Shown piece after piece: positions 3,126-60,033 of a DNA stretch of 64,000 nt. The stretch's first letter is position 1; the number at the start of each line of letters is the position of its first letter. The DNA comes from a virus: positions 28,963 through 92,962 of IMG/VR virus record IMGVR_UViG_3300035188_001035. One strand, given 5' to 3'. Made by a program: the position numbers and the translations under genes. The notes below the pieces were generated by a model, which was not told where the DNA came from, did not search any database, and was given only the letters and a program-made list of their open reading frames with translations.

Positions 3126-3559
3126 AAAAAATCAGAAAATATTTTCTATACACAACAGAACCCTCAAATCCAATTAAGGGTTTTGAATATTGTTCTATTA
3201 GTAAGTTTAGTAAATTCAAATCGCCAAATATAGATGAGTTGTTTGTTGCGGATCTAATTGATAATGTACCAGCAAATCAAAAAGATCAACTTGTCAAAGA
3301 TATCAAATCTAAATTAAAAACTAATGGTATTTTATATGTGCAATCATTAGATAGATACGCTAGTGCAGCATCGATTCTAAATAAACAAATAGATAATAAT
3401 TTTCTTAACACTCTACTATTTGCTAATAATAGGAAAACACTATCTTGTATGTCTGAAATAGTTCAATTATTAAATAAACATGGTTTTATTATAGAACAAT
3501 CCAAATTTATAAATGGTATCCAATATTTTATTAAAGCAAGAGCATCTGATAATGAATGA
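3122..3559 (+). CDS. class I SAM methyltransferase-like protein, apparently lacking motif I
   Basis: DELFVADLIDNVP...KSKLKTNGILYV resembles the C-terminal half of Methyltransf_11; no GxGxG. Confidence 0.45.
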   Translation: MKKIRKYFLYTTEPSNPIKGFEYCSISKFSKFKSPNIDELFVADLIDNVPANQKDQLVKDIKSKLKTNGILYVQSLDRYASAASILNKQIDNNFLNTLLFANNRKTLSCMSEIVQLLNKHGFIIEQSKFINGIQYFIKARASDNE

Positions 3560-6356: not shown

Positions 6357-9300
6357 TGTCTCCTGTTTATGTATCGTGTGATGGTAGAATATCACTAACA
6401 CAACACGGTGTAACAACAGATGAAAACTGTTGTGGCGGATGCTGTTCATACATTTCCGCAAATATAGACTATGTAAAAAATGGTCTGCCAACTAGCCCAC
6501 CATCGTACACTAATTGTATCCCTGATGGTCCATCAAAACCAGTTGTTATAAACGAAAATCCACCAGCAGGTATTTGTGCGCTACATGGTCTTCCTGGAAG
6601 TGATGGTACTTTTTCGCCCGGTTGTGATTGTGATTTTGCAAATAGAACCGATTGTTGTGCTTTCTATTGCGATGTTTGCAATGGATCCGCAATTGGTTGT
6701 GATTTTCCTCCTGAGTGTTTCGCGGAATGGACACCTCATGAGTATTGCTATTTGACCAATCCGGTATATCCAGAACAAATATATAATATGGAGCAATATG
6801 CATTAGCTTGGGCTCAAAATGCTGATTTTACAATTATTGACAGATTGAGTGGTGCTCTAAATGAATTAAAAACTTGTTTGGAAGATATGGGTTATCAAAA
6901 CGTAACAGCCAATGCTGGTCTAAGTTATATGCCAGGAACCGACGAACATGGTCATTTTGCTCCTATTGTCGTAGATAACCAGCCTTGGGTTCCTGTGGAC
7001 GAAACTGGACATACACATAATGAATACTTTTCTCAACAAAGATTAGAAGAAGAATATGGATGGGTATTTTATAATGGATATAATCCTGGAGGATGTGTAC
7101 CTGATGGAGAGTGTCATCCAGATATGCAAGCTGCTTGTGGTGGGCCGTGTGGCGGCAATGGTCCGTGTATAAGTCCGGTTATTGTAGACCCGATTAGTAA
7201 TTTGACGTGTCCTCCTCTGATAGTTGATTATGATAACTGTACACAATATTGCGAAAAACAAGACTGTTGTGTGTCTTTAGAACCTATTAGGATAACAGGA
7301 AATCTTTCTGCTAGTTGTTGTGATAATTGTGGGCGTCTTGGTAAGGCCAAATGCTGTACAGCATCCAGCGTTATATTTTCTCAACAGGATTTGGAAACTT
7401 TGAGTATTGGTACATCGGCCGGTAGAGGAGGAAAATGTGGAATTAATGGATGTTCTCCGGCAGTATCAGGAATAAGTGAATGTGATACGTTAGGTAATGG
7501 AATTTTAAATATGTGGTTCGAACCACTATACGAAGGATCAAATGAGTATAATCTTAAAATACTAGCCAGAGAATGTGCGGGATCAAATACTTGTGTAATT
7601 GGTCCATTAAGAGCTTATGAATCAGGATGGAATGAAAGTACACAAAATTATAATAAGCCTATAGATACTTGTGATTATTCTTTTGAAAATCAAGAAGCTT
7701 GTGAATGTGGCTATAGAGTTAAAAAATTATGTGTTTCTACAATCCAAAGAACTTTTAAATTTAATCTTAATACTAGACACGTTGAGTCTGTTTTTGATGG
7801 ATTTATAGCGATATATGCTCCCAATAATCCTAGATGGATGGTTCCAGATCCTCCAACAACACCTTTTGAACAAGATCTTTATAATAGTATATATACAAAT
7901 TATTGTGTTGATAAATATTTATGGCCTTCTTGTTTACCAGAGGATTATGGGATTGGAAATGATGGTTTTTATGTCAGAAAAAGATGCATAGAGAGTGGTC
8001 CGCGGCCGTACAATGAAGATGTTATTACTCCTGGCAATTTCGTTTCTGAATCAGAATCAGTTGATCCATCCTATCCATTTGCAGGTTATGCTTTATGGCA
8101 TTTTAGAAATGACTTGGTTCCTGGATGGGAATTATTTGAGGTAGACGGACCAGATTCTCCAAGAACACAAGGTCTTGCTAGTACACGATCTGCAATAATG
8201 AGAGAAACGGTATATGGTCCTCCAGACGAAAGTGCCGCAACAACAAAATATTACTATACTGCATTTACAAGAAGAGGACTTCCCGATTGGGTGGTATTTA
8301 CTGTTGGACAAGTAACAAATACAGATTGGACATATGGAGGTTTAACTACTGCTTGGCCCCTGGGTTCTGCTATATCGAATCATTATGCTGCTATGTGGGG
8401 TACTGCACCGGTCTGTGATGATATTGATAATCAATTACTGTTCGGTGATGGTGTTTGTGCTGGTAGATTTAAAGAATATTACTATCAATGGACAGTTTCA
8501 GAACAATTTCCTAATCAAGAATCGTCTTGCTCGCCAGTACTAACAAAAGACAATGAAATGAAAAACTGGGGCTGTGGAGTAATGATAGGCGATGAGTTTA
8601 TGCAAAATGGAGCTTGTGAAACAGGTATTCAAATTGTTGATTTTGCTAACGAACTCGAATGGTTGAATGTAATGAACAATTTTAGACCAGTTCCCCCATG
8701 GAATATTGAATTATTATTGGGTACTGATGCTGTGGAATATACTTGTGGATCAGAGTGGGGGGTATGGAATGATCCTGAGTGTGTAGTTGTATATGATGAG
8801 GAACCAACATGCGATCCTACTCCAACACCAGCACCAACATCAACAGAAACTCCAGTAGCATTTACTCCTACTCCGGGACCTACTGAACCATGTCCAACAC
8901 CAGAACCTACTCGTCATTGTGAATCGTTATCTCATGAGTTTGATAGTAATCAATGTCCAACTCCGAGTCCATCAGCTACTCCAACACCAACACCAACTGA
9001 AACTCCTACTCCGACACCTACTCCCACTGAGACTCCTACTCCAACGCCGTCGCCAACACCAAGTCCAACGCCATCGCCAACACCAAGTCCGACTCCAAGT
9101 CCTACTCCGAGTCCAACGCCGTCGCCAACACCGAGTCCGACTCCAAGTCCTACTCCGAGTCCAACGCCGTCGCCAACACCTAGCCCGACACCATCGCCAA
9201 CACCGAGTCCAACGCCATCGCCAACACCAAGTCCGACTCCAAGTCCGACTCCAAGTCCGACTCCATCACCCACGCCAAGTCCTACTCCATCGCCAACACC

Positions 9301-9544
9301 AAGTCCGACTCCAAGTCCTACTCCGAGTCCAACGCCGTCGCCAACACCAAGTCCGACTCCAAGTCCTACTCCGAGTCCAACGCCGTCGCCAACACCTAGC
9401 CCGACACCATCGCCAACACCGAGTCCAACGCCATCGCCAACACCTAGCCCGACACCATCGCCAACACCGAGTCCAACACCAAGCCCAACGCCGTCGCCAA
9501 CACCAAGCCCGACTCCGAGTCCAACGCCATCGCCCACTCCTTAA
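6356..9544 (+). CDS. large Cys-rich protein with C-terminal (PTPS)n mucin-like tail; probable virion surface/fibre protein
   Basis: About 55 Cys in first ~870 aa, many as CC pairs; ~190-aa terminal Pro/Thr/Ser array. Confidence 0.75.
8957..9541 (+). repeat. coding tandem repeat, 12-nt degenerate unit encoding PTPS (~40+ units)
   Basis: ccaacgccgtcg / ccaacaccaagt / ccgactccaagt / cctactccgagt units with synonymous variation. Confidence 0.95.
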
Positions 9545-9566
9545 GTTATAATAAGAGAATAATATT

Positions 9567-10193
9567 ATGGAACCTATTAAAATTATCAATATAGAATGCG
9601 TAAGTAGTAATGCTCCGTGTTATACTATCACTATATCAGCTGCTAATTTTATTCCTGGATATTATATTGAGACTAGTTTAGACAATGGAGGAACATGGAC
9701 AACACAACAATTATTAACATCTTCAATAACTACTACCGATATATGTTTCGAAGAACCACTAGAATCTGCTGTCTTGATCAGATTAGCATATGTAGGATGT
9801 ATGGAAACTATACCTCCAACGCCAACACCATCACCAACACCAACAGAAACTCCAACACCTACCCCGACACCTACTCCCACTGAGACTCCTACTCCAACGC
9901 CGTCACCAACACCGAGTCCGACACCTAGTCCAACGCCAAGTCCTACTCCATCGCCAACACCAAGTCCGACTCCAAGTCCGACTCCATCACCCACGCCAAG
10001 TCCGACTCCATCACCCACGCCAAGTCCTACTCCATCGCCAACACCAAGTCCGACTCCAAGTCCTACTCCGAGTCCAACGCCGTCGCCAACACCTAGCCCG
10101 ACACCATCGCCAACTCCTAGTCCAACGCCGTCGCCAACACCGAGTCCAATGCCATCACCAACACCGAATCCGACGCCGTCACCAACCCCATAA
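9567..10193 (+). CDS. small beta-domain protein with C-terminal (PTPS)n tail
   Basis: ~80-aa N-domain (SLDNGGTW) followed by ~125 aa of PT/PTPS repeats. Confidence 0.8.
9813..10190 (+). repeat. coding PTPS tandem repeat (~25-30 units)
   Basis: Same 12-nt unit family as 8957-9541, including an identical 41-nt block. Confidence 0.95.
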
Positions 10194-27455: not shown

Positions 27456-30400
27456 TTAATTATTGCTTGAACTAATTGTTATCCAATTATCATTACCAGC
27501 GTGAACTAATGATATGTTTGTTGATGGTGCTAAACTTGTTAATTCTGTGCCATATCCGCTTTTTCTTATAAATATATAAAAACCAGTATCTCTATTTACT
27601 ATAGTAAATTTTTTACCCATATATAGTCCGGTACCATTAGGTAAATATAATATAGCTGGATTAACAGTTGGAGTTAAAAATTGATATTCTGCATCGTTTG
27701 CGGATAAGTATGTAGATGCTCCAGATAAAGAACCAGAAGTTGCTAGGTTTTCATATCTTAATCTACTATTATTTATGGTGTCGGTACTATCTGTCTGGTA
27801 AATCATTTTATGAATTGAACTAGTGCCAGTTGGCATAGTAGTTGGAGTTATATTTGTACCTGTTGGTGTTGATAATGAATTAATAATAACTCCACTATTT
27901 AATATAACACCACTATTAAACGAAGATATTCCATAGATATTTACGGCTCCACTTACACTAATACCAGATGCAATTTGTGCATTACTAACAGTGATATTGG
28001 TAAATATACCAGAAACAAATGTGCTTGTACCAGAACTCACTATGCCCGATGAAAATATTCCAGTGCCGCCTGCAATATTTATACCTGAATAAAAGGTTGC
28101 AGATCCCGAACTAATAATACCAGAAGCAAATGTTCCTGTTCCTATTACAATAATATTATCATCAAAAGTAAATTCATCATCAGAATAAAAATATATTCCA
28201 GTAGACTTTACTAATAATCCATTAGTGTTATTAGCAAAAATATGTATTCCGCTATTGCCTACTACGGTGCGATTATGTCCAATTACAATATTATCTGTTC
28301 CGCTAGCACTGGAGTTCATACCATGAATAATATTATTTAATCCTGTTGCATATGATTCTATACCACAAACTATATTATTTAAACCAGAGACTGATGATGA
28401 TTGTCCAAAAATAATTCCGCCAGAACCATATATACTATTATTATAGCCAACGATAACACCTGTCTCTTCGATATCTGCATAGTTACCATTACCGACAGCA
28501 AATACACTAGCAAAAAATGAAGAATTATCAAGAGTATTACTTCTGCCAACAGCAACAGATCCATTTGCAACAACAGTATTATTCTCTCCTATAGCTACAG
28601 AATAATCTCCATGAGCACCATTATCATAGCCCATACTAACACTATATAGGCCACTACTAGTATTATTATTACCAAGTGCTATTGCATAATTTTCATATGC
28701 ATTATTATTGTTTCCCAATAGAACTATACCAGTAGCTATAACTCCTGATGTAAGTGCGTTCATATTAGAACCAACCACCAGAGCACCACTACCAGAGCAA
28801 GAGATGTCTCGACCTAATAAAATATTATTTGTTCCACTACTATTGATATCTGTACCATATACTATATTACCACTATTAGTAATAGCATTATTTAATCCAT
28901 AAACGATATTTGTTCCACTAACACTATTATATCCTACAGAACAGGTATTTTTACCTAAATCAATAACTCCTGATTTATTGCCATCTACCAATACAAAAAC
29001 TTGATATTTACTATTTTCTAATCCTGAAGTTAATGCTGTTACATTATTACGTAATAATAAACCAGTAGTTGGCATATTAGAACTATTCATAAAAACGAAA
29101 CCAATAGTTTCGTTGATTCCACTAGACAGAATACTAGTATTTATAAGATTAAAATTGATATCACTATTAACACTAGTGTTATAGCTAATGTCTCCGGATT
29201 GACTTATTTTAATATACTTTGTATTATCATAACAAAGATATGTAGAATTGGATCCGCTAGCAGATATTCCTGATCCTCCAATAATCCAAATATTTGTGCC
29301 AGATACTGAATGATCATTGCCTATAATACCACAATAAGTTGAACCAGAAGACAACACATTATCATTACCTAATAGTATGCTGTTTTGTGCGGATGACGAG
29401 TTATTGGATCCTACTTGTATATTTTGTCCTATATTATCAGAGAATGTTCCTATAACTATACCATCAGTATTATCATTATCTGATCCTACTGTTAAACCGT
29501 CTGTTGAAATAATAAGATTGTCTTTTACTATACCATTATCATAAATTGAAGCTTTAATAGCAGACTTTTCTGATCCTGCTGTTGCAGAATCGATGTACGC
29601 TGATAATTGAACGTATGGTACTCCATTATTACTAGTATTAAGTCCGGAAAAAACTAGAGCGCCAATTCGATCATTACTAATATTTCCACTAGTACTACTA
29701 TTATGAATTGATAGTTCAGGACCAGTACCACTACTTTCTATAGTTAGTCCATTAGTTTCTGAAGTTTTAATATGAACAGTATCAAGAGGATTAGAATTAT
29801 TAATACCAATATTATTGGTGCTAGCATCAATAAATAATAAATGGGTTAATCCACTACCCTCTATTCTAAAATCTTTATCCAGTGACTGTTCATTGAATAC
29901 TACTGTGCCGCCAGAAATCGGTATAATAACATCCGCTGTTACAAGATTACCCGTTCCACCTATTTGTAATGAAGAATTTGAACTATTCCAATTTAATGCT
30001 GCTACTCCGCTAAAAGCTTGATTATTAACAATCTGAATAGTACCATCTATACCATAAGCGGATGTAGAGTCTTGAATAGGATCTAAAAATAACCAGCCAC
30101 TTTGTGATGGTACAGAAACTAATTGTATATAGTCATTAAGAATTGATAATGAATCTGATGAATTGCCATTAACAGTTTCTGTGCCGTATGGTAAAAACTC
30201 CACAGCATTTGCTTGTTCGTATTGACCACCTATAGTTTGATTTAAAAGAAATCCTAAAATGATAGGATCTTCTCCGACTACTGTGGGTAACGAAACCTGT
30301 ACGTTAGATGATGATGCATCAATAATATACGTGGTAGGTATATAGTCAGCAGTAAAATTAGCTGATTTTGATTCTACATTATTAAATGATGTATTGACTC

Positions 30401-30713
30401 TATCTTGACTAATAATAGTTTCTATGAACTTGGTACCACCAGAAAATGATACTAAATTATTGCTACTGCTTGAAGCTATTACAGTTTGTCTAACTAATTG
30501 ATCTATGCCTCCACTACTCGATATATATCCTGTGCCTATTTCCCATTCAAAATCATTATCTATTCTATAGATATAATAAGATAATAAATTATTGGCACCT
30601 ATTACATCAGAAAAACTTCTATAACCAGTAATAGCGCCAGATAATACAAGATTACCTGTTCCATTAGTTGTTGATGATTCTTTTACTCTATTAGCGTAGT
30701 ATTTAATTGACAT
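27456..30713 (-). CDS. tail fibre with YadA-head-like beta-roll repeats
   Basis: N-terminal ANRVKESSTTNGTGNLVLSGA phage fibre anchor; 14-aa repeats SVSMGYDN/SVAIGENN/SVAVGRSN. Confidence 0.75.
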   Translation of the reverse strand: MSIKYYANRVKESSTTNGTGNLVLSGAITGYRSFSDVIGANNLLSYYIYRIDNDFEWEIGTGYISSSGGIDQLVRQTVIASSSSNNLVSFSGGTKFIETIISQDRVNTSFNNVESKSANFTADYIPTTYIIDASSSNVQVSLPTVVGEDPIILGFLLNQTIGGQYEQANAVEFLPYGTETVNGNSSDSLSILNDYIQLVSVPSQSGWLFLDPIQDSTSAYGIDGTIQIVNNQAFSGVAALNWNSSNSSLQIGGTGNLVTADVIIPISGGTVVFNEQSLDKDFRIEGSGLTHLLFIDASTNNIGINNSNPLDTVHIKTSETNGLTIESSGTGPELSIHNSSTSGNISNDRIGALVFSGLNTSNNGVPYVQLSAYIDSATAGSEKSAIKASIYDNGIVKDNLIISTDGLTVGSDNDNTDGIVIGTFSDNIGQNIQVGSNNSSSAQNSILLGNDNVLSSGSTYCGIIGNDHSVSGTNIWIIGGSGISASGSNSTYLCYDNTKYIKISQSGDISYNTSVNSDINFNLINTSILSSGINETIGFVFMNSSNMPTTGLLLRNNVTALTSGLENSKYQVFVLVDGNKSGVIDLGKNTCSVGYNSVSGTNIVYGLNNAITNSGNIVYGTDINSSGTNNILLGRDISCSGSGALVVGSNMNALTSGVIATGIVLLGNNNNAYENYAIALGNNNTSSGLYSVSMGYDNGAHGDYSVAIGENNTVVANGSVAVGRSNTLDNSSFFASVFAVGNGNYADIEETGVIVGYNNSIYGSGGIIFGQSSSVSGLNNIVCGIESYATGLNNIIHGMNSSASGTDNIVIGHNRTVVGNSGIHIFANNTNGLLVKSTGIYFYSDDEFTFDDNIIVIGTGTFASGIISSGSATFYSGINIAGGTGIFSSGIVSSGTSTFVSGIFTNITVSNAQIASGISVSGAVNIYGISSFNSGVILNSGVIINSLSTPTGTNITPTTMPTGTSSIHKMIYQTDSTDTINNSRLRYENLATSGSLSGASTYLSANDAEYQFLTPTVNPAILYLPNGTGLYMGKKFTIVNRDTGFYIFIRKSGYGTELTSLAPSTNISLVHAGNDNWITISSSNN

Positions 30714-30730
30714 GTTAATTAATTTTACTC

Positions 30731-33700
30731 CTATCTTCTTATATTAATATTAATACCTGGCATAGCGTCTCTGATCGCATTTTCTACAGCGCCGATAACT
30801 TCATCTCTGAGTTGTGGCATATCTTGTTGTACAGCTTCTCCATTCATTTCAACAGTGACATTTACTGGTATAGATCCATTAATATTCAATGATATGTTTG
30901 ATGGTATTCTGGATATGGCTCTTTCCAAAGATCGTAATGATGTATTAAATCCATTAATAGTGTTATTAAAATTATTGGATGCTGAATTTATAGATGCTGC
31001 CGCAACACTAAGTTTAGCCGCGCCAGACTCTATACTATTTAATTGTCCAAAGGCTGAGGATATCTTATTACCCGTTTGAACAAAAGAGTCAATTACGGAT
31101 TTTAATGAATCCACAGATCTACTAAAGTTGTCAAATGCACTATTTAACGATTCAATATCTAATACACCACTTTGACTAGGACGGCCACCGCCACTATTAC
31201 CTCCAGCACCGTATGATCCTATCATTCCACCATTTTGAAAATAGTCTGGATTTTGACCATTATTAATAGACTTTAATAGTGATAGATTATTCTTAGTAGA
31301 TTTAGCATTTACAACAAATTCACCAGGAGTTAGCATAGCAGGAACAGTATCAGTACCTTTAGGTTTAAAGTTAATATATTTTCCATCATTAGCATATATT
31401 AATCCACCATTAGCATGGTGCTGAATATCAATAGAATGAGCATACTTTTCTTGGGCTATCTTTGCTGCTTCAATACCTAATTTATCAGCAAGAGGGGACA
31501 AATGAAAATGAACTTCTTTTCTAAACAAATCCATTAATTTTATGGATTCTAATGTAATTGGAACATCTGTTGCTATGGCTCTGCTAGTACCGGGTGGAGC
31601 GCCTGGTCCTTCTATAAATGTATTAGGTCCCTCCACCGCTTTGATTTTAGCTTTGTTTTTTATTTCCTCTACCCAGCTAATTAATGCATCTTCATCAGCA
31701 CCAGTACGTGTTGCATATGTATCGATTGAATTATTCAATACGTCTTTTATGGTTTCTCCTGGTTTGGGTTGATAACCAGCTGCGGTTGATAATTCATCAG
31801 CATACATTCTAGCAGCTAAATTTGATTGATCTGTTACACGAGCTATATTAGATTCAAGAATTGGCTCACTTGTTCTCGTTAAGACCAATCTAGCATCTGT
31901 GATAGGAGTAGTACCATCCCACGCATATCTAATGGCTGTTTGAGCAGCTTCTTCTAGAGTTGTGGTTGATGGTAATGAGCCTCGGGGAACATTAGTTTCG
32001 GTACCAACATATTTACCAGGACCTAGGTTACCCATACCTGGTCTATTGGGATCTGTGAATTTAGGACTCTCTCCAAATTCTCCTATAAAAATACCCTTGC
32101 TATCTCTCATTTGAGCATCAGGCAAATCTGCCCATGGATATTTAGTGCCATGAACACCAGCCACTTCTGCTTCTCTCATTCTTTGAGCAAGATTTTTTGC
32201 AGCTAACTCGATATCTGCTTCATTTGGTTTAAAATTAGCTCCTTCAAGTAATCGTGCATTGGCTTGTTTACTTAAATGTTTGGACATGCCTAACTCTGCT
32301 AATTTAAATGCTCCATGAGCAGCAACTGTAAAAGCGGCCATTAATAAAGCTTCTTTTGCTCCTTCATTATCTCCTGTAGCATATGCTATTCCGGCAGCGG
32401 TTGTTGGAGCGCCAGCTTCAACAGCGAATGCTGCTCCGGTTCCTAATCCGGCTGTTCCTATCATTGTGGCCATAACGGCAGGATCAGCAACACTCAAACC
32501 TAATTCTACAGTTTTTCCAACTATGGGTAAACCAGTAATATCAGATACAACTTGTCCGGTTTCACTAGGAACGCCGGTAAAAACTTCCCCTTTTTTATAG
32601 TCTTTACCAGCATTGAGCAACTTTCGTGTTTGTCTAGCGGTAATTTTAGGATCTGGTGGAGTAAAGATTCCGTTTAGTTGTTCTTCAAAAAATTCTCTCC
32701 ATAAACGACCATTAAAATATCTACTATATCTTTTTTCTGCTGCTTTTCTTCTTTTTATTTCTTCTTCAGTAATTGTTGATTGTGACAGATCCATCATTGG
32801 CGATCCACCAGCATATGGATTTGGTCCAAGATCTTTAATTTCTCCTCCAAATGGATTATATTTTTTAAGTGGCTTGTTTGTTCCATCAGCAAAATAATTC
32901 ATGCCATTTTTTTGTAATGAACCACCACTATTTATACTCTTAAGTAATGGTAAGTTCTTTCTGGTGGCTTCACGATTAACAACAAATTCACCCGGAGTCA
33001 ACATTGCCGGAACAGTATCGCTACCTTTTGGTTTAAAATTGATGTATTTACCAGTACTAGCATATGTGGTTGGTAATTTTGTATTGTTTGATGTTAATGC
33101 TTTAACTGCGGCCCCTTCTAAATCCTCTCTATCAACAGTTCTTAATATTTCAGCAATAGTATCTAATTTTTTATTTGTTAATACTAGAGCATTAGTAAAC
33201 GAATCCTGTATAACGCTAGGCTTTAATACTGTTGCTGGATCAGGAGCAGCACCGGCAGGAGCAGCACCGGCAGGAGCAGCAGGAGCAGCAGGAGCGGCAT
33301 TACCAGCGGCAGGAGGTTCTGGTTTATTAGGATCTCGTTTTAATTCAAATTCTTGTGGTTTTATAGATTCTTTTAATAGTTTGGCAGATTCTGTTACGGT
33401 AGCTGACCATAACTGAGCAGATTTTTCAACCTCAGTAAATAAAATATTAGCACCAGCTTCCATTCTTTCTTTTAATTGTTCTGTGGCTTTACGTTGCTCT
33501 TCAAATAACATTCTAGCACGACCAACCTCAGCTTCTATTTCAGGATTTTCTCTGCCTGGACGTAACCCTAATTGATTTTTAATAAAGTCTAAAGTTGCAG
33601 CTAAAGTTGGATCTTCTCTACCTATTTTTGTAAGTACATTATCAAAAAATTGCTTAGTAAGTTCTTCTCCTTGTGCTTGTGGCACCATTGAAACGATTTT

Positions 33701-36700
33701 TTCAAGGCCAGCTACTGCTTGAGGTAATTCAAAATTTTGAATATTACCAGTTAATGCTCTAGAATATGCGTCTACAGAATTGACAAAATCCACTTGCCAT
33801 TCTGGATTATTAACATTTTTGATAATATCGGTAAGAATATTACGACCACCCTGTTGTGCTTGCCTTAAATCTTGAATTTTAGCCAATGACAATGCTGCTC
33901 TTTGACCATCAGTAGCTAACTTATTTAGGGCTAATCTTAATTTTTCACCTTCGGCAGTAATTTTACCAAGTTTATTAGTTAATAATGATACTTCTTTCTC
34001 TCTATCTTTTTGGTCTGGTATTGTGGCTGCCCTATCAAGTTCTTTTTGAATACCAGCCCGTAAATCATCAGCAAAATCTAAACGTTTTCTAATCTCTAAT
34101 GGATCTAATGTTCCAGCTTGTCTTATACCAGCACCAGCAGCACCTTGATCTTGTGCAATATTAGGGATAGTGGTTAGTCTACTGATTTCATCATTAAATG
34201 GCTTGAATAATCTATCCATTGAAACTGTTCTATTTAAAGCTTTATCGATACTGTTGGCTCCTTCTGTTCTAATTTTTCCAGCTTGAATTTCTAGATTAGT
34301 GATTTGAACTAGAGCGTCAGAATATTCTTGTAGTCTTTGATTAACCTCATTTAGTGTTTTTAATCTGGCTTCTTCACTTCGTTTTAATACGGGACTTAGT
34401 GCAACAACTTGATCAATAACATTTTTTAAAGCTTTTTGATCATTTATCAAATCTTTAGCATTAGCTAATGGACCACCCTCTCTACTAGGCTTGGTAATAA
34501 GATCTGATACTTTACCACCAATAGATTTGGCAAAATCTTCACCAACTACATTTTTAAGCGCATCAGTAACTTCGTTAGCAATAAATGCAGTATCAACTTC
34601 GTCTCCGGGGTCTCTTGCTCCTAGTGTAGCATTTCTGGCTATTGATTTACCAATAATATTTGGTAGATCTTGAGTTAGAATTTTTTCAGTTAAAATTCTT
34701 TGTTTAAAAACATCTGTTAATTCTTTATCAAAACCTAATCCACCAGTAACATTCTGAATTGCTCTGGCAATATCATCATTAGATGAGGCAAGTAAATTAT
34801 TTAAAACTGTTAAGTTTTTATTACTAGCTTTAGATATTGTTGCTTTACCACCAAGTCTAGTACCAATAGATAATTCTCTGTCTCTGGCAGCATCCTGGAA
34901 TACATCACTAGCTTTGTTAATAGCAGCTTCAAAAACATTTAACGCATTATTTAATCTGTCTACTTGTATTCTTGTTACAGTTCCTAGTCTATCAGCTTCT
35001 GCTTGTTTTAATATCGGCTCTCCTGCTCTACCTAATGCTCTTAATCCTGATTCTATAGCATTTTTAACTTCTTTATTAAGATTAGGATCTTGCTTTTTAA
35101 TAGCATCAATAATTTCATTAAAACTTAATTCGTTAACTTTAATATTCTGATTGATTCTGTCAATTTCTGCTGTGAGAGTTTTTTCAACATCCGGAGTTCC
35201 TGCTCTTGCGCTAATTTGTTTTTGTTGATCAATATATTTTTGTAATACTAGCTCTAATTTAGTAGATTCTATAACATTTTCTGCTCGTGCTTTTTGTCCA
35301 GCGTCTAGTGCGTTTACAAAATCACGAACACTAGTTTCGGGTGTTTCTCCTATAGTTACTCCTTGCGCATTGCGTAAGCCAGCTTCTTCAAGTTTTATTC
35401 TTTGCGCAGACTCTAGTATACCTGAAGCTTCTGTAAAAAATTGTGATCTTTCTATTCCAGTAAGATCTTTTCCTTGTGTTAGTCTATTTTGCAAATCTTT
35501 CAATGGAACATTAGCTAATTCCAAAGGAGCATATTTGATAGCTTGTTCTGCTAATGGAGAACTCAATAGGTTTTGACGCTGCTTTTCATTTTGAGCTGTA
35601 CTAGAAAATATTGATCTTAGTGCAACAGCAGCAGCAGCTAATGCTGCAAATGCTCCTTTAACACCAAGAATAGTACCGCCAAAGGATCCAATAGCGGATA
35701 TCGTTTTACCTAGTGTTAATCCAGTAGCTCCACCAGCAGCAGTCTTTGCTGCTACATCTGCCATAGCACCAGCGGGCCAAGACGTAGCAGCCGTTGTAGC
35801 TGCACCGCCACCACCAACACTAATTAATCCACCCAATCCTGTAGCGGCCGCTGCTAAACCAGCAAAAATAGCTGTAACTCCAGAAACTCTAGCACCTAAT
35901 CTATAAATTTCATCTTCTGTTCGACCTGTTGTTCGATAAAAATCAGCATCAAATGGATTAAAAGTATCAGATAATGTTCCAAAATATCCTGTACTTGGTC
36001 TTCCTGCTGTTTTATCTTCCGTAGCAAATCCTTTTAATACAACTGTAATAGGTACGTTTGGTGGAACAAACGCTTGATACATACTTTCGCCAGCACCGGC
36101 TAGTGCAGCCTCGACCACACCACCTCTGGACATATAGGTTCCATTATTAATGGATTTTAATAAACTTAGATTTTTACTAGTTGCTTTTTTATTAACGACA
36201 AATTCACCAGGAGTAAGCATTGCTGGAACAGTATCGGTTCCTTTGGGTTCAAATACGTTGCCGCCCTTAGCATAGTATGCTATTTTTCCTCCTCTGCTCT
36301 TACCAGTAGCTGCTTTAGCAAGACTTAATCCCGCAAGAATGGCTTGTACTGTTATAAATGCAGTCGCTGCTTCTTTCGCTGCTCTACCAAGATTCAATAA
36401 CCATGTTCTTGTTTCTTCTGCGGTATTTCTACTAATATCTCCAACTTCTCTATTTATAGCAGCGTACTCCTTGATAATCTCTGTTCTTAGCTCATTAAAT
36501 CTTCCTCTGTCACTTGGATTCTGAATTTCTTTAAAGAGTTCAGCAAGATTAGCTTCACTTGTAGCAACCCTTTTATTGGTCAGTTCCATCTCCTTACCAA
36601 TTTGGCCCTCTATAAATCCTTGTGCTCCACCCAATGCTAATCCTGTAAGACTAGCAGCACCAACACCTAATGGACTCATGCCAGCTGATTGAGCTAATTT

Positions 36701-39700
36701 GGCAAATCCAACCGCTGCTCCACCAGCCTCACTTAATCCTTTAGCTAAACCAGCAGCATTTGTGCTTGTTGATAATGATGTTCCAGCTAATTTATCTAAA
36801 TTTGTATAAATGTCCGGTAGTCTTGAGCCTAAAAACATAGATGCCCCACCAATAACAGAAACAAAACCACCAGCAGCTTCTGTTGCTTTGCCTAGGTTTT
36901 CAGCAAGTTTGGGGGCTTGTTTTTCTAATAAACCAATGCCAGGAAATCTATTACCTCCAAGATATTCACCAGCTCTACCTAATGGGGTCTCTATAGAGGC
37001 TTGTAAATCTCTAGCATTACCATAACGGAATCTACCAGCATTGACTGATCTTTGTGCGCGAATATCTAGCTCATCAGGGATCATCTCTGGTAATAAAGTA
37101 CCTACTGTTTCCGTTGCTTTTTTAACTGCTATATCTAAAGCAATAAGATCGTCTATCGGAGAATTAAGAGCCTTATTTAATTCTGTTGTACCACTCACGA
37201 TATCACTAAAAGATTCTTTCAACTGTATACGTTTAAATACATCTTCTAATACTGCATTTAATTTATCAGTATCTATTTCTTCACCAAATAGTTTATAAAT
37301 ATTTTGAATATTTTGTCCAGCGGGTTCTAGTGCATCTGGATTCCCTGTTTCTCTAGCGATACGTATGTAGGCTGATAATTCTTTCTGTTGTTGTTCTATT
37401 GATCTTCTAGTAGTAATTGCTGTTTTAATAATACTATCTTTAATTTTATCGCTAATACTATCTAATGATTGACCTACTGCTGATGAAACATCAATAAACT
37501 TAGCCTTAGCTTCATCTAATTGAGATATTTCATCTAATACTCTTGCAAATTCAACACCACCATCTGATGCGTCTGCTGATGGAGATGCTCCTGCCAATCT
37601 AGCTTCTTTACCAACTTCTGTTAGTCTCCATGAACTCGAAGCAATATTACCCTTAGCTTTACCAATTTCCCAACCAGCCATTCTATCAATCATTTCTTGT
37701 TGTAGTTGTGGATCACTCAAAGGATCAGCTAGTCTATATTTATTAGAGCTTTCTGATGGATTTTGTTTTAAATGTAGTTGTTTACCAATATCCCACATTG
37801 CCCATGATTGACTAATACCAAATTGACTAGGTTGTAATCCTATGTCGCCCAATTGTTTTTTCAGAGTCTCTTGCATAGTTTTAGCAAGATCTTCTATGGG
37901 CTTAATATCTCCAAGTGCATTTGCAGCATCAGCTAATGCTTTGGCATATTTCATTCCGTTATCTGTTATGGCGGATTGAACACCAGTAACATCGCTATAA
38001 TTAATTAGACTTACAAAATCTTCTGGTTTATATTTAGCTCCACCACCTTCAGCAAATCTTTGTATATTTCCAACAATTCCACCAGTATTATATCCTTGTA
38101 TTTTATCAGCTTTATTTAATCGATGTAATTGAGAATACCCTATCTTTTGAGCGGCTTTTTTATTGATAACAAACTCACCAGGAGTTAATAGTGCTGGTAC
38201 AGTATCTTGTGCTGATCCTCCTTTAGCAAACTTAGAGGCACTAGCAGCGAAATAATTTGCTGCTAATGAACCACTATTCATTGATTGATCCATTCGGATT
38301 ACACTATTAGGATCACTAATTAATGATGGTTGTTTACTATATCCGCTTTGTAAAACCCATGCAGGATCATCAAATGGCGGCCAAGTGTCTTCTGGTCCAT
38401 ATAATTTTGGATCGATTAGTGCTTGGTTTTTTGTCCAATCTTCTGGTTTTAATAATGGTGTTTTACGAACATCTGGTCTATTATTAAAATAATATTCCCA
38501 AACACCTTTAGCGTCTCCACTAACAGATGATCTATCAGATGTAAGCATAGCACCATTAGCAGTAGCAGCTTCCATCACAACATCATATAATCTTGGTCCA
38601 TATCCACCAGTAGCTTGAGATATTCCAACGTAATATAAATAGTCTCTCATCTTGTATGCTGAAACATTACCAGATCTTTGATTATTTCTAAAATATGTTG
38701 CTGAAATGGATGATCCGTCGTCTCTTAAGCCAATTTTTCCATATTCTTTTTCTGTTTGTTTCTGACCGTCAACAGTAGCAACTCCGCCATCAGCAAATTT
38801 TGGTAATGTTTTATAAAAATCAGGATTTAATCCTGCTGTACTAAATATATTAGACAATATTCTAGTAGCTTCAGAATCCCCTTCAGAAGATGCTCCTATT
38901 AATACTGGAATAGCTTCTAATCGTCCAAAATCTTGTTGAGCTTGTGCTATTGTTTTAAATGATTCTTCTGGTGTGACTTGTGATTTAATTCTTTTTTTAA
39001 CCGCAGCTGAAGCTGTTTTCGCTATTGTTGATGGATATGGTGAACGAGATCGTGGAGTTGGAAATAGATTATTTAATGTATAATTGCCAGGACCTGTCCA
39101 AGAAGATGATCCGGAAGCGTACCAAGCTTCAATATCTTTATATGACATTTCAACAGCAGAGAATAATTTATCCATTATTTCTGGATAATTATCATATAAA
39201 TATCCTTGAATATCATGAAAAGATTCGTGAGCTAATGTTCCACGATGCGCAGCACCCTTTAGATTAATAACATCTTCATTACCTTCGAATGCTAGATTTT
39301 GATCAACAAATGATTTTAGAGCATCATATTCTTGATTTGATAATAATGACTTACTTTTTTCTATTCTGCTTCTTAAAGCTTTAAATAATAATCCACCAGC
39401 ATAATATGCTTTTTCTACAGTATTTACGGCCGCCTGCCCAGGGTCTGCTGTTATAATTTCAATAGGTTCTGGTTTACCTGATGGTTGTTTTAAGAATCCT
39501 GTTTCTGTTAGCATTTCGGGTGGAAGAATACTAGATAGTATTTCTTTGTATCTTTGTATCGCTTGTCCTTGCGGACTTTGCGATGCAGACATTGCTTCAG
39601 TTAACATTCCACCCCGACCAAATTTCTTATAATATCTTTCTATTTCAGACCATAGCCTACCTTCTGCTGAATTATTATTAGTAACTTTAATATCTGATGG

Positions 39701-42700
39701 CATATTAGATGGAACATCCCAAAAATTAGCATATGCTCCGACACCATTAGGATAATCTATAGGACGTAATGGATTATCATCATCTTCAGCACTAATATTA
39801 ATACCTAGTCTCTTAGCTAATTCTTCTGCATTAGCTGCCATCATAGTGGTACGATTGCGTCTTGATGAAGCAGAAGATGGATCGTAGCCTGTTGGTTCAG
39901 TATAGGCTATTGCTCGACCTTGTGGATAACCTAAACCACGAGGTCTATTTTTAATATCTTCTACTGTGGCAACCCTATCATCAATTAGAGTTTCTAAAAA
40001 TGAAAGATTATCAATCTTATTTTCTGCGCCACTTACACCAGTGATTTTGTCACTAGAGATTGGTAAACCAAGTCTATTTAAAGTATCAGATAGTAACGGA
40101 GCATTGCTCTGTGGTCTAGCACTTAATATTCTGATACTATCTAATAATTCTGGAGTTTGTTGTACTCTACGCTTTAATTCTTCTCCTAGCAATGTTAATT
40201 CTGCTGCTTCTAATCCTTGTTTAACTAGATTTAGATCATTAAATTTAGCAAAATCAATTCCACCATTAGCACCAGCAAATAAACTTTCATCACTATTTAC
40301 AAGTGTTTTATCAAAATCAAAAGCTAATGGAGTACCCGTACCAAAAATATCAGTATATTGTAATGCTTCAGCAGCTCTAGTTGGAGCACTAGCTAGTTCA
40401 TTTTCTATGTCTGATATTGCTTTTTGATATCTTGATGGTAATCCTTTCATTACAATTTGTGTTAAAAGTTTTTGTCCACTGCCTGTTGTTAATTCTTTAA
40501 CTTCGCTTAAATCGTTATATCCAACAGGATATATACTTAGCAAACCAAATTTATTAGCAATACCAGCCTGTGCTTGTAACCCAGCTTTTTTCATAGCATT
40601 TGCTTGGGCTTCTTTATATCCAGCCTCTGCTTCTTCTACAACTTTAGTTAATGCTGGAATATATTGAGATCTATCTCCGAAAATATCTGGTTTGGTTTTT
40701 CGTAACCATCTAGAGTCTACTAATTGACTTGCTGTTGGTTTTTTAGTTAAACCAGAACTAGTCATAATATCGCTAATTTCTGGTTTAGATATATACTTAT
40801 ATAGATCTGTAGTACCTCCAAGATCTTGTATTCTTTTTAGCAAATCATCTAAACTTGATGGTTGTTGTGCATTGGTTTGCGAAGTCATTTCCTCTGCAAC
40901 TCCACCAGCCATCAATTTTTGAATAATACCACCACGATTAAACAATCCTGCTTGATTAAATTTTTGAGGACTTGCCCAATATACTGTTGCTGGAGGAAGA
41001 TTGTTTATTTTTTCCAATTCTTCTACTTTAACATTTGGTACGTTTCCAGGATTTTTGATAACACTTTGTTCAAATAAATAGTTTTTAGCAGCTATAGTTT
41101 GATCATTATTACCTTTTAGTGAATCTGGATCTGCATATTCTGATCCCTTTTCCATAAATTTAGATTCTGATCGTTGTGATGGAAAATCCAATAAAGCCCA
41201 TTTTGATTTTGTATCTTGTTGTAATCCATATTCATTTGATACTAAATCTTCAAATTTTTTCCATGGTCTGTCTTTTGATGCTTTCCATTTTTTAATAGCT
41301 GCTTTACTAAGTTGACTTGGATCAATATAAACATCTTTAGATGCGTCTTTAATTGTATCATTTTCGACTTCATCATATCCAAAAGCATATGATATTGATG
41401 GATATATATTGGCTAGATCTTTAACTTTACCACCATAAGCATATTTATTAATTTTTTGTAAGTTATTAGCACCAAGAGTTTCAACAGCCTTTTTACGAAT
41501 TACGAACTCTCCTGGCATAAGCATAGCTGGTACGGTGTCTCTACTTCCCGTTCCGGGAACAACACCACCTCTTGCAAAAGCTAATACTTTACCGCCACTA
41601 TTTAATTCGGTAGTAGGTCCTGTGGTACCACTTCTATTAATAGTATTTTCTAATGATCGTATAGCTGATGTGACATTAGTAAGAGCAGTAGTATTCTCTG
41701 ATAAAACAGTTTCTAGTCTAGCATTAATAGTAGAATCAGTTTTTTCTTTATTTCTAGCTGATCCTAATAATGTTTCTAGAATATTACCGGATTGTGTATC
41801 TGTATTTTCTGGAGTTTTTCGTACACCGCTTAAAAATCCACCAGCAAATTGTGTTGCTGCCGATGCTGCTTTGATACCCCCAAGAATAGCTAAGTAGGGT
41901 AATAATGGTTGAAATGCAGAAGCGACTTTAATAAGAGTACTTGTTAATGTTAGTCCCAAACTTATAAGATTTTGAAATGTTTTATTTCTACCAAGGGCTT
42001 CGACAAAAGCTAAAAATTCTTCTCTGGTTTTGCTAAATTGCACAGCAAGTGCTGACTGAGCTTGAATCGCACTACTACTTAAGCTTCCTTGACCTTGTTG
42101 AGCTATATTTAAAGCTTCTTGTGCGGTAGCAAATTGTTGTATTAGTGGAATAACTTTGCCAATTTGTCTAAAACCACCAAGTTCTTCTGCAATTGCAGCA
42201 AATTCACCGCTTCTAGGATCTAATCTGGATAAGCCTTCACTAAGTCTTCTAACAGCTTCATAAGCTCCAACAAATTTATCTTGTGCATTAGTGAGCTCGA
42301 TCCCGAAGTCTCTTAATGCTTCGATAGTAGATCCTCTCTGCACTCTAGTAAAAATAGTTCTCAATCCTGTCGCAATAGTTTCTGCACTTTCACGAGTAGT
42401 AGCACGAATACTTGTAAATACAGCAATAAATTCATTTAAGGCATCTGATCCTTCACTAACACCTTTGCTAGCTGTTGCGAACACACCACCCGTTCTTTGA
42501 ATAGCACTAATAATATCGCTAGATTCTACAGCAAATGCGGCCGCAACAGCATTGATTGATCCTAGAACACTTTCTAAATCTCTTGTTTCAATACCAAATT
42601 GTCTAAATGCAGCGATAGCTCCTTCTGTTGTTTCTGTGATACTATCAAACGATGGAGCTAAAGCAGATTTGGCTAAAGCTTCAAGAGCATCTTTTGTTTG

Positions 42701-52787: not shown

Positions 52788-53792
52788 TTAGAGTGAGCCT
52801 AATAGAACTCTGCGGTTGTCTAGAACAGCAAAGCCTTGTTCTGCCCAGCCATAGAAACCGGCTCTCTTTTGACGATGGAGAGTATCGTCTTCGAAGATTT
52901 GAACGGCTTCACGAACTGGCATTATAAAGCTATCTCTCTTGCTAAGATCTAAACCAACAACTAGTTCTACGTCGCCTTCTGGTAATGTGCCAGATAGTAC
53001 GTTGTCATAGAATAGTTGATATTCTTGACTCTCGCCTAGCTCATCAAGGTCGTGTAGGTTAACACCGAATACTCTATTAAGAGTACCATCGGCAGCAACA
53101 TAGATCTCACGACGTGTAACTTCATCAACTTGGTCAACACCCCAGTTACGAATATCTTCCATAGCTTCTGGAGATACGTAAACGTCTGTGAGTCGGCCAC
53201 GGTTAGCTGAAGTGGAGTTACCACCACCATTACGACGCATAACGGTCTTCATTAAACTTACAAGACGCTTGGTAAATTGACCAGCATCGGCATCGCTGTC
53301 ATAAACAACAATGTTACGATCAACACCAGCAGCAAGAAGTGTATGCCAGCCATCGTCATTCATCTTTTTGACGAATTGAGCTTCCATAACTTCCATAGCA
53401 CGACCAACAACGTCCCAGCGAGCATCACGAGCATACTTTAAGAGGTAGTCGATGCTAGCACCAATGTCATAGGTTGGAACCATGACATAGTCGCCTTCAA
53501 CATGACGCTCTGGAATATAGCCGTGATTGGGAATTGTGTAAGCAACAAAGTCCTTCTCGGTACCAGGAGCAAGGAAATCTAATGGAAATTCTGGAGTAGC
53601 ACTTTGAGCAAGTTGGATTGGCTCGAAAATACCATTGAGAATATCACCATTTAGAATACCTTGTCGAAGTGGAAGTTCTAGAGCTTTTGCAAACTCTGCA
53701 TTAGCACCTAGGGCCTCTTCTTTATTTAATGAGCCAGAACGAACAAGAAGGTCTGTAAGTTCTGGTGTTGGTTCAAAAGCTTTATTGGACAT
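52788..53792 (-). CDS. major capsid protein (HK97 fold)
   Basis: 334 aa after protease/scaffold and decoration genes; strong SD (AGGGAG); terminator downstream; C-terminal GFYGWAEQGFAVLD. Confidence 0.85.
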   Translation of the reverse strand: MSNKAFEPTPELTDLLVRSGSLNKEEALGANAEFAKALELPLRQGILNGDILNGIFEPIQLAQSATPEFPLDFLAPGTEKDFVAYTIPNHGYIPERHVEGDYVMVPTYDIGASIDYLLKYARDARWDVVGRAMEVMEAQFVKKMNDDGWHTLLAAGVDRNIVVYDSDADAGQFTKRLVSLMKTVMRRNGGGNSTSANRGRLTDVYVSPEAMEDIRNWGVDQVDEVTRREIYVAADGTLNRVFGVNLHDLDELGESQEYQLFYDNVLSGTLPEGDVELVVGLDLSKRDSFIMPVREAVQIFEDDTLHRQKRAGFYGWAEQGFAVLDNRRVLLGSL

Positions 53793-58020: not shown

Positions 58021-60033
58021 TTATTTATATATTCCCATGTATATATCTTCGTTAGCTCCTTCTGTAAACCAACTAGGACCTCTATACATTTGGCCACTAT
58101 TTTCTGTTTTTGGTGATGTTTGTGCGTTTGTTCCTATAATATCATAGTTGATAGGAGTAAGTGTTCTAGTGAGTTGTCGTGCTAACATATTGGCGATTAA
58201 TAATGCACTATATCGGTCTTTTCTTAATTTGCCCTTTTTACCATTTGGTAATTTTAAATCAGGAGTATCCCATCTGTCTCTAGCTCCTGATCCTGTGCTT
58301 GTGGAAGTCATAACTATTGTTGTCAATTCGTTTTTTAGTTCTTCAATCTCTAATATACATTCGCTGGTACTATCGTAAATAGGAGTAAGATCAGCTGTTA
58401 AAATATCTTTATTTTCTTGATCTAAAGCTAGTGCTAAGCTTAGATTATCAAAACGAGGAAATAATAATACTTTATCTTCAAAATCTTTGCGTAGTCCATG
58501 GTTTGCTTGTGCTGTCCAATCTGCTCGTGCAAATTGAACTAATTCTAAAATATGCAATCCTGGCTGATCATCCGTGTCTTTAGATTTATCATTATCTATA
58601 ACCGGCCAGATTAAATTCTCTCCATCTTCTAATTTATCTGGATCGTGTAATGCTTCTTCGATTGCTACGCCACCACCCTGAGCGTCCATTCCTATTCGCT
58701 CACAAGGAAAAACTTTCATTAAATTACGAATTTTCCTAGCACAAAATCCATAAAAATCATGTTCGTTTGATAGTCCTGCTTTTTGTCGTTCTTTAAAGTT
58801 TGTTCGATTCGTAGTCCAACAATATACTATTCTGGTGTGTGTTCCGTGACACTCTAATACTACAATACTAAAATTATCTTTTTCACTAGCAGGGTCAATT
58901 CCATATACATATTTATTCTTAGGGTCACCGTTTGTTCTTACTTCGAATAGAATTTTTTCATCATTTATAATTAATGGATTATCTGGTTTTACAACACAGC
59001 TTTCTATAAGGCTTCGTCTAAAGAATCCATCGCTATCTTCCGTAAAACATGCTGCATATTCCATATTATAAATACCAGTATGAATAGTAGCTTTAGCTCG
59101 TGCTACTTGTTTATCGTCCATGAATCCTTTTGGTATTAATTCATAAGGTATACGAATAATACTATAGTCTCTCCAATTAAAATTATCTGGTACTTCACCT
59201 TTAAAAATTTCTTCAAGTTTATGAATTTCGCCCTTGCTCTCTATAATAGTTTTGTATCTCTTCCAATAACTAGCAAAGTGCTTGAAAGCATAATCAGCCG
59301 TGCCTGCTATTATGGCCTGGTTACCCATTTTGAAACTTAATTCCTCTAAATCACTATTCCATAATCCAGCATCTTTCATGGCTTGTTTTTTAGCTTCTCT
59401 TTTTACGTTTTGAATAGGAGTAGCAGAAACTGCCGCGAAACCTGAAACTACGGTCTCATAAATATCTGGAGAAATTGATGCGAATTCGTCTGCGATGATA
59501 ATGTGTGCTCTTAAACCTCTAATTTTACTACCGTCGCCCATAGGAATAGCAATTGTCCAACTATCTCCGAATCTCATTGTGCATCTATCAACATCTCGAC
59601 GCGGTCCATCATCGTTACCATTAAAGATACTGCGTAAAATGGCACTATTACGCCAAAATGTTTCCATATATTCGAATACTAATTTACTCTGACGAAAAGC
59701 TGCGCCAACCACAACAATTTTGGTTCCTGGAACAAAGATGCATTTAAGAGTACAATACAATGCCATTAAAAAGCTTTTGCCGAAACCACGAGACGCAATG
59801 AACATTGGAAAAGGACGAATCCAGAATTCTTGTAAGATAGCAATTTGTATAGGATGAAGTTCAATATCAAATAATAATTTACATGTTGATCCAAAATTAA
59901 CAGGATTTCTTAGTAATTTTAGAAGATGAATATCTGGCCTTTCGATATCTTGCTCTATCCTATTAATCATAGGATTATTAGATATATTTAGTTGTGATAG
60001 TTCGCCAAGATTTAACCACGCATCTTCATACAT
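58021..60033 (-). CDS. terL: terminase large subunit
   Basis: LHPIQ, Walker A ASRGFGKS, RGLRAH, Walker B IIIADEF, RNase H-like GIDPA, MDAQGGG, KDRYSA. Confidence 0.92.
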   Translation of the reverse strand: MYEDAWLNLGELSQLNISNNPMINRIEQDIERPDIHLLKLLRNPVNFGSTCKLLFDIELHPIQIAILQEFWIRPFPMFIASRGFGKSFLMALYCTLKCIFVPGTKIVVVGAAFRQSKLVFEYMETFWRNSAILRSIFNGNDDGPRRDVDRCTMRFGDSWTIAIPMGDGSKIRGLRAHIIIADEFASISPDIYETVVSGFAAVSATPIQNVKREAKKQAMKDAGLWNSDLEELSFKMGNQAIIAGTADYAFKHFASYWKRYKTIIESKGEIHKLEEIFKGEVPDNFNWRDYSIIRIPYELIPKGFMDDKQVARAKATIHTGIYNMEYAACFTEDSDGFFRRSLIESCVVKPDNPLIINDEKILFEVRTNGDPKNKYVYGIDPASEKDNFSIVVLECHGTHTRIVYCWTTNRTNFKERQKAGLSNEHDFYGFCARKIRNLMKVFPCERIGMDAQGGGVAIEEALHDPDKLEDGENLIWPVIDNDKSKDTDDQPGLHILELVQFARADWTAQANHGLRKDFEDKVLLFPRFDNLSLALALDQENKDILTADLTPIYDSTSECILEIEELKNELTTIVMTSTSTGSGARDRWDTPDLKLPNGKKGKLRKDRYSALLIANMLARQLTRTLTPINYDIIGTNAQTSPKTENSGQMYRGPSWFTEGANEDIYMGIYK

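Follow-up and report, generated by a model that had tools for sequence, protein, structure and literature searches.

A giant phage tape measure protein with exchangeable enzyme-like modules between conserved [FY]xxGG linkers

Tape measure proteins (TMPs) are usually seen as rulers and channel formers. Some of them are known to hold an enzyme: cell-wall hydrolases lie inside Tmp of phage TM4 (PMC1796659) and pb2 of T5 (PMC10038345), and YomI of SPbeta is annotated as a TMP with an embedded cell-wall hydrolase. TMPs are ejected first and form a conduit across the envelope (PMC12617516). Cleavage has been described for two of them: gpH of lambda loses a C-terminal piece of about 14 kDa, cut off in a glycine-rich region, with about residues 690-817 unresolved (PMC12617516), and T5 pb2 is cut after R1127, separating a small enzymatic C-terminal end (PMC10038345). 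Several catalytic domains per chain, in varying combinations and also in solo versions, are the hallmark of polyvalent proteins, which are predicted to be packaged in the head and delivered together with the DNA (Iyer et al., 2017, PMC5512222); a zincin has been proposed as their self-processing peptidase, and tape measure proteins are mentioned nowhere in that article (PMC5512222). A 2023 survey of phage mosaicism could not confirm genuine recent mosaicism in TMPs for any case (PMC10684548). Here we describe a TMP of 4,202 amino acids (aa), P0001, in which enzyme-like modules are set between short [FY]xxGG linkers. Its gene lies in a 64,000-nucleotide stretch of viral DNA (the window), positions 28,963 to 92,962 of the IMG/VR virus record IMGVR_UViG_3300035188_001035.

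By its profile matches P0001 is a TP901-family phage tail TMP; that it is a tape measure protein had been proposed in a preliminary description made from the sequence alone. The core domain PF10145 (aa 182-388, E 5.8e-23, 82.3 bits) and TIGR01760 (tape_meas_TP901; aa 143-435, E 2.3e-24, 86.1 bits) both exceed their curated cut-offs of 33.2 and 28.8 bits, and several PHROG TMP families match as well. Apart from this core, the full-length protein and eight of its segments gave only a weak nucleotidase match when scanned with Pfam, NCBIfam and PHROG profiles, and Pfam Tape_meas_lam_C did not match the whole protein (E up to 1). The gene is found downstream of the terminase (58021-60033) and major head protein (52788-53792) genes, inside the same-strand gene run, and the order of terminase, portal-size gene, major head protein, further on the TMP gene and then large downstream open reading frames (ORFs) fits that of a tailed-phage structural module. 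P0001 is probably the TMP of an uncultured phage with a non-contractile tail; no match to a tail sheath gene was obtained in the record of 92,962 bp, which is estimated to be 64% complete.

We posit, with a probability of roughly 55%, that this TMP has a cargo bay of enzyme modules and that its ejection would carry the modules into the host as pre-made enzymes, tethered or cut free. The bay would directly follow the N-terminal core and consist of module A and three modules of the HAD phosphatase, zincin-like metallopeptidase and GNAT acyltransferase types, joined by disordered [FY]xxGG linkers (Table 1). As TMPs leave the tail ahead of the DNA, such cassettes would reach the host ready-made. 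They may arrive tethered, or may be freed by cuts at or beside the linkers if lambda gpH and T5 pb2 are taken as a guide; in those members that carry one, the embedded zincin would be a candidate cutting enzyme. From the same analogy we infer that the motifs may be cleaved and that active effectors may be delivered.

The modular nature of the bay is apparent from homology searches and fold models. When aa 650-1704 were compared with 1.84 billion representatives by phmmer without filters, 883 matches were obtained in four separate blocks (3-167, 150-600, 606-866 and 865-1050 in query numbering), the edges of which coincide with FNRGG (aa 800), FGRGG (aa 1240), FADGG (aa 1515) and FAKGG (aa 1704). 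Blocks C and D exist also as stand-alone proteins of 120-410 aa with termini within a few residues of the linkers; the stand-alone homologues of C finish with ...LPR[FLV], where P0001 reads LPKF-ADGG. AlphaFold2 models based on purpose-built alignments were obtained for aa 1241-1790 (mean predicted local distance difference test score, pLDDT, 80) and aa 581-1250 (mean pLDDT 77). Module C (aa 1241-1516) scores mostly above 90 and module D 75-97, whereas the linker after FADGG and all of unit 2 stay below 50. In the aa 581-1250 model, disorder is predicted for unit 1 and for the double linker (aa 800-825). The models thus support the view that the modules of aa 650-1704 are autonomous and globular, with HAD, zincin-like and GNAT folds mostly above pLDDT 80 and linkers below 50.

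The preliminary description had expected module boundaries at the motifs, which is where the homology blocks end, and the segment modelling that it had suggested as a check gave folded domains between disordered linkers over aa 581-1790. Its wider claim of globular, non-helical segments between the motifs is borne out for aa 650-1704 and fails for aa 1771-2350 and 2411-3425, which contain few aromatics, many helix formers and Gly/Ala-rich hydrophobic stretches.

With regard to function, the core of module B has, in the model, the fold of the HAD superfamily. In a Foldseek search with the aa 581-1250 model every top row was a HAD enzyme, the closest folds being polynucleotide 3'-phosphatases and class B/C acid phosphatases, and HAD motifs I-IV (DxDxT, S/T, K, DD) are readable and conserved, so that the HAD-like module of the preliminary description is confirmed and phosphatase activity can be predicted. 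The HExxH- and GNAT-like signatures noted there reappear, at the level of models, as zincin-like and GNAT folds. Module C is a candidate zincin-like metallopeptidase, with HExxH and the later Glu invariant in 11 of 11 aligned homologues and present in a 47-sequence consensus, and module D is a candidate GNAT-like acyltransferase. The nuclease-like signature assigned to module A found no support: the module has no match in Pfam, PHROGs or Atlas, the PD-(D/E)xK residues proposed for module A and the flanks of module B are not conserved in the consensus, and the fold-search lists were filled by the neighbouring HAD domain. None of the modules reaches a Pfam threshold, and they therefore represent unrecognised sequence families; ten stand-alone homologues had no Pfam match either. 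Profile searches against PDB sequences were uninformative, returning noise or coiled-coil matches that stem from full-length TMP rows in the profile.

A search of 5.8 billion proteins identified at least 189 relatives of 2,311-7,135 aa that share the N-terminal core at 50-60% identity and little else, and it is among these that gain and loss of modules can be followed. P0002, which is 93% identical to P0001 over 4,039 residues, has an additional module of about 350 aa and one more unit, with the insertion breakpoints inside unit 5. From pairs of TMPs whose flanks share at least 70% identity, we collected 19 distinct clean indels (cut-off 100 aa; observed range 100-490 aa). An [FYWLMH]xxGG motif lies within 20 aa of both ends in 11 of the 19, compared with 0.5 expected under random placement, and of one end in a further seven. 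Typically the junction reads ...N-FADGG-[insert]...FVDGG-W... in one protein and ...N-FIDGG-W... in its partner. The 214-aa insert that distinguishes P0025 from P0030, flanked by FFNGG and FADGG, is exactly a Pfam ADP-ribosyltransferase (ART) domain (PF03496, aa 1303-1513, 26.8 bits, cut-off 23.4). As had been anticipated, modules are gained and lost at an [FY]xxGG motif or inside a long unit. The comparison of homologues supports a modular, polyvalent TMP with cassettes inserted, lost and reordered at the linkers, and the family would offer a clean natural case of recent domain shuffling in TMPs, of a kind that the 2023 survey could not confirm (PMC10684548).

In 152 TMPs the stretch from unit 1 to unit 2 was split at the short motifs. 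The resulting 599 segments form 142 clusters, and 36 clusters have at least three members; clustering was done at reciprocal 70% coverage, as single linkage at 50% coverage had merged unrelated modules. The commonest cluster is HAD (68 TMPs, with DxDxT in 66 of the 68). A GNAT-like module follows with 55 TMPs, then a T/HxGH module with 42, a P-loop module with 37, two HExxH modules with 21 and 19, and two ART-like modules with 20 and 18. One TMP can contain as many as about nine cassettes in a row, and their order varies, for example 11-0-5-1 in P0001 and 3-4-2-36-0-5-1 in P0006 (cluster numbers). Together with the Pfam ART cassette of P0025, this bears out the combinatorial, polyvalent-like architecture that the preliminary description had suggested. 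The delimiter motifs provide a simple rule for finding candidate effector domains, most of the 142 clusters being without a known family.

Two further observations concern cassettes of the relatives. In many of them (P0006-P0014 and others) a P-loop module of about 217 aa (GxxxxGK[ST]) is followed by a module of about 600 aa with a GGFAPxTxGH-type T/HxGH motif. P0006 (aa 788-1296) is an example and has a weak Pfam match to HIGH_NTase1_ass (E 0.008), and the two modules may form a kinase and nucleotidyltransferase pair reminiscent of the NadR type. The ART-like cassettes belong to two distinct families, one matching PF03496 (20 segments, e.g., the P0025 domain above), the other with FHG[ST]...GxGFY (18 TMPs, e.g., P0019 aa 1874-2077).

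The motifs themselves are far more frequent than composition predicts. P0001 contains 16 [FYHM]xxG[GT] pentapeptides (4.1 expected) and seven of the form [FYHM]AxGG (0.26 expected), and each of the nine positions previously listed for bare motifs proved to be the low coordinate of a real pentapeptide. A regular expression search for DTVPA[ML]L[TM]PGEFV[VI] finds exactly five copies, at aa 601, 1712, 2369, 3441 and 3997 (window positions 41498-41539, 38165-38206, 36194-36235, 32978-33019 and 31310-31351), all within the ranges where they had been reported. Each belongs to a longer unit in which [FY]AxGG is separated from the core by about 10 residues, and the core from a second [FY]xxGG by about 25, the last of which read L..[IL]N. 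The 13-residue core is near-invariant across 652 distinct copies (D 96%, V 95%, A 98%, L 100%, P 96%, F 91%). At the DNA level the copies are only 68-81% identical over 60-140 nt, and the repetition is thus kept at the protein level and does not reflect recent duplication. A double linker like that at aa 800-825, [FY]xxGG-x-[VI]Q[KR]-[FY]xxGG, recurs at cassette junctions of relatives. Most relatives contain two to eight long units. In the majority, unit 1 is located around aa 525-650, and the last unit lies at a median of 203 aa from the C-terminus (152 relatives); unit 2 follows unit 1 at a distance of 188 to 4,125 aa.

The unit is related to a region of well-studied TMPs. Lambda gpH contains one full unit at aa 731-790, after a Gly-rich hydrophobic stretch, and in P0001 a hydropathy scan places units 1 and 3 after hydrophobic stretches as well. 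A hidden Markov model (HMM) of the family unit scores 23.4 bits on gpH aa 731-790 and at most 5.5 on 90 shuffles. Judged by their sequence, all five copies in P0001 are C-proximal units of the lambda gpH type, and unit 5 corresponds to the one unit that ordinary TMPs have near the C-terminus. The 14-kDa piece of gpH would start at about aa 710-725, no more than 20 residues upstream of the unit, and a cut at FATGG (aa 733-737) would give 12.5-13 kDa. In T5 pb2 the cleavage site reads FVPR/AEGG (slash, cut) and lies between a hydrophobic stretch and the enzymatic C-terminal piece. The unit and linkers would offer a concrete candidate for the position of the gpH cut and for the purpose of the conserved C-proximal TMP motif. 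In Gordonia phage TMPs the unit occurs at two places per record. It is also present in gp12 of Bellamy, a T4-like cyanomyovirus of Synechococcus (799 aa, among baseplate-hub genes, L003:6841-9240, 51 bits with the unit HMM), and at the C-end of gp79 of Pelagibacter phage HTVC103P (431 aa, right after the portal gene, L009:6136-7431), which has several xxTGG pentapeptides in addition. The distribution of the unit thus extends beyond the TMPs of siphophages.

Several points weigh against a delivery of released enzymes. Folded domains of 20-45 kDa, in three to six copies each, are by estimate too bulky for a tail-tube lumen only a few nm wide, and the modules would thus have to be unfolded or be placed elsewhere in the virion. 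A linker is expected between any two domains, and a boundary at a motif is by itself no sign of cleavage. With a zincin in only about 21-40 of the 152 TMPs, this enzyme is not a general processing enzyme. T5 pb2 obtains no score with the unit HMM, its likeness to the linker being one seen by eye. Moreover, near-invariance of 13 residues in 652 copies goes beyond what a cleavage site needs and fits a binding or hinge role at least as well. Such a role would be expected if the TMP were modular but never cut, the linkers and units acting as flexible hinges or as docking sites for tail assembly chaperones, the tube lumen or other TMP chains, and the tethered enzymes working in the periplasm or membrane, aiding penetration rather than countering defence. 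The modelled disorder of linkers and units agrees with this, as do the facts that TMP-borne enzymes described so far all act on the cell wall (PMC1796659, PMC10038345) and that the unit recurs in a myovirus protein at the gp29 position and a portal-adjacent podovirus protein, which points to a general virion or ejection role. On the other hand, GNAT, ART and a polynucleotide-phosphatase-like HAD need acyl-CoA, NAD+ and nucleic acids of the cytoplasm, and the TMPs of lambda and T5 are cut close to the corresponding place (PMC12617516, PMC10038345). A complex prediction for three copies of unit 5 scored 0.03 and is evidence neither way. We consider a TMP that stays uncut a serious, if unlikely, alternative.

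Only slightly less plausible, and doubtful in our opinion, is the generalization that [FY]xxGG linkers and the unit are a processing or hand-over signal at large and that giant TMPs are polyproteins releasing enzymes ahead of the DNA. If it held, a programmable set of enzymes (ART, GNAT, Pnkp-like phosphatase, zincin, P-loop plus nucleotidyltransferase) would be released into the cell, which would constitute a third delivery route for counter-defence or takeover beside capsid-packaged proteins and early genes, and the position of the gpH cut would be predicted. The motifs might instead be mainly recombination junctions, with short conserved linker DNA allowing in-frame exchange of cassettes that are selfish or neutral passengers. 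Recent indel ends do sit at the motifs, and TMPs with 70-93% identity elsewhere can have different sets of modules; however, a similarity of 68-81% between units, and of no more than 15 nt in a 5-aa linker, is too little for homologous exchange, which makes homologous recombination at the motifs, considered as recombination boundaries in the preliminary description, unlikely, and the retention of HExxH...E and of DxDxT (66 of 68) across many lineages argues for selection on activity. We regard this explanation as improbable. It is harder still to believe that the giant ORF arose by misassembly or by joining of several genes, or that the region encodes something other than a TMP. Family scans of the genes flanking the TMP gene gave no recognisable family, and annotation thus does not confirm the tail-module context. 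However, the identical protein is recorded on 18 contigs of several origins, and its layout recurs in at least 189 independent relatives. An equally uninterrupted long ORF is seen at five loci in IMG/VR, the TMP core match is strong, and the gene order fits a tailed-phage structural module. We therefore retain, at the strength given above, a TMP whose cargo bay would deliver pre-made enzymes.

Table 1. Features of the P0001 gene, in protein residues and window coordinates
Feature	Residues (aa)	Window position	Strand	Basis or remark
Whole gene, tape measure protein P0001	4,202 aa	30731..43339	-	single uninterrupted ORF; PF10145, TIGR01760, PHROG TMP families
TP901-type TMP core, conserved; hydrophobic stretch aa 457-490 at its end	1-580	41600..43339	-	hydropathy scan; homologue alignment
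Long unit 1 ([FY]AxGG ... DTVPAMLMPGEFV ... YAYGG)	581-650	41390..41599	-	modelled as disordered, pLDDT 35-58
Module A, alpha/beta domain	651-800	40940..41389	-	own homology block (query 3-167); pLDDT 70-93; in 12 TMPs
Double linker FNRGG-IIQK-LMAGG	800-825	40865..40942	-	pLDDT ~31
Module B, helical and beta N-terminal part, then predicted HAD phosphatase core	826-1240	39620..40864	-	
HAD core of module B	989-1150	39890-40375	-	AlphaFold2 and Foldseek
Module C, zincin-like, HExxH (aa 1371-1375) and downstream invariant Glu	1245-1515	38795..39607	-	
Module D, GNAT-fold domain, core aa 1530-1670	1520-1703	38231..38782	-	
Long unit 2 (FAKGG ... DTVPALLTPGEFV ... YNTGG ... FAEGG)	1704-1770	38030..38230	-	pLDDT 35-55
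Helix-former-rich segment; Gly/Ala-rich hydrophobic stretches aa 2152-2170, 2215-2243, 2320-2346 at its end	1771-2350	36290..38029	-	composition, hydropathy
Long unit 3	2351-2410	36110..36289	-	motif match; hydrophobic stretch precedes, as in lambda gpH
Gly/Ala hydrophobic stretches (aa 2481-2582), long helix-former-rich region, Pro/Ala-rich low complexity (~aa 3350-3390)	2411-3425	33065..36109	-	composition, hydropathy
Long unit 4	3426-3490	32870..33064	-	motif match
Segment E, hydrophobic pair (aa 3613-3683) and ~290-aa C-terminal part	3491-3974	31418..32869	-	hydropathy; homologue search
Long unit 5	3975-4045	31205..31417	-	motif match
Conserved C-terminal tail	4046-4202	30734..31204	-	kept in 60-130 relatives; weak coiled-coil-type Pfam noise only

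Outside the cargo bay the protein would hold ruler and membrane-active parts. The helix-former-rich region within aa 2411-3425 is likely the ruler part. Homologues are few for aa 1800-2250 and more numerous from aa 2250 onward, and aa 2750-3250 are conserved in about 70 relatives. The Pro/Ala-rich stretch just upstream (in the protein) of unit 4 is encoded by a short DNA tandem array with a 15-nt period, GCAGCACCGGCAGGA-like, at window positions 33226-33315. By analogy with the C-ends of lambda gpH and T5 pb2 (PMC12617516, PMC10038345), aa 4046-4202 are probably the tip-binding end.

For segment E, where an ART-like signature had been suggested at aa 3690-3975, we lean against an ADP-ribosyltransferase. 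The nearest Atlas clusters carry ART-PolyVal, but at a score of 0.84, below the evidence level of the tool, and the HGT and GxGxY patterns, found in P0001 and its 93% twin P0002, are not kept in P0008/9, P0015 and P0079, whose homologous segments were aligned with it. The segment matches neither Pfam nor the HMMs of the two ART-like cassettes of the family, and a search for stand-alone homologues of aa 3690-3975 retrieved only a fragment of the same protein.

Next to the TMP gene, the downstream neighbour (1,085 aa, window 27456-30713, minus strand) shows sub-threshold matches to a YadA head and beta-roll repeats at aa 700-821 and is possibly a distal tail protein of the fibre or adhesin type. 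The window, in which no tRNA genes were found, has a GC spike to 0.47 at 8001-10000. Relatives by the N-terminal core occur in metagenome-assembled genomes from lakes and sea that are labelled Chitinophagia, Alphaproteobacteria, Thermoplasmatales, Verrucomicrobiales, Bacteriovoracaceae and others; this spread over phyla most likely results from wrongly binned phage contigs of aquatic origin.

Among known TMPs, lambda gpH shares with P0001 a hydrophobic Gly-rich stretch followed by [FY]AxGG ... PAxxxxGEFV ... [FY]AxGG. The TMPs of lambda and T5 are rulers in non-contractile tails, as P0001 probably is, and both are cut near a unit-like place during tail assembly (PMC12617516, PMC10038345). In contrast, lambda has one unit and P0001 five, neither lambda nor T5 has a cargo bay, and P0001 is 3.4-5 times longer than their TMPs. 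TM4 Tmp, YomI and T5 pb2 resemble P0001 in having enzymatic domains within a TMP, thought to act at ejection. Their enzymes attack peptidoglycan, whereas P0001 has modelled HAD, GNAT and zincin-like folds, to which its relatives add ART, P-loop and nucleotidyltransferase-like modules.

Short conserved peptides that border exchangeable cassettes are also a feature of polymorphic toxins (VENN in CdiA, DPxGL-type in Rhs), which carry one C-terminal toxin and a cognate immunity gene. The TMP family differs from them in having several tandem internal cassettes and a virion structural protein as host, and no immunity genes were seen. With polyvalent proteins it shares the predicted combination of peptidase-like, GNAT-like and, in relatives, ART domains in one chain, the fast-changing architectures and the solo versions, and in its modelled architecture P0001 is polyvalent, with HAD, zincin-like and GNAT folds in one chain and module orders that vary among relatives. 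The two differ in that polyvalent proteins are predicted to be packaged in the head and are not built on a TMP chassis, and [FY]xxGG delimiters have not been described for them; hmmscan with the PolyVal Pfam families (ART-PolyVal, MPTase-PolyVal) gave no match to any P0001 segment at E up to 10. A literature search for the unit motif or for non-muralytic TMP enzymes returned nothing directly relevant. A large aquatic phage family with TMPs that exchange cassettes of HAD, GNAT, zincin and ART type would bring the concept of the polyvalent protein to the tail. While enzyme-bearing TMPs and polyvalent proteins are both already known, cassettes of predicted non-cell-wall enzymes on a TMP chassis appear to be new.

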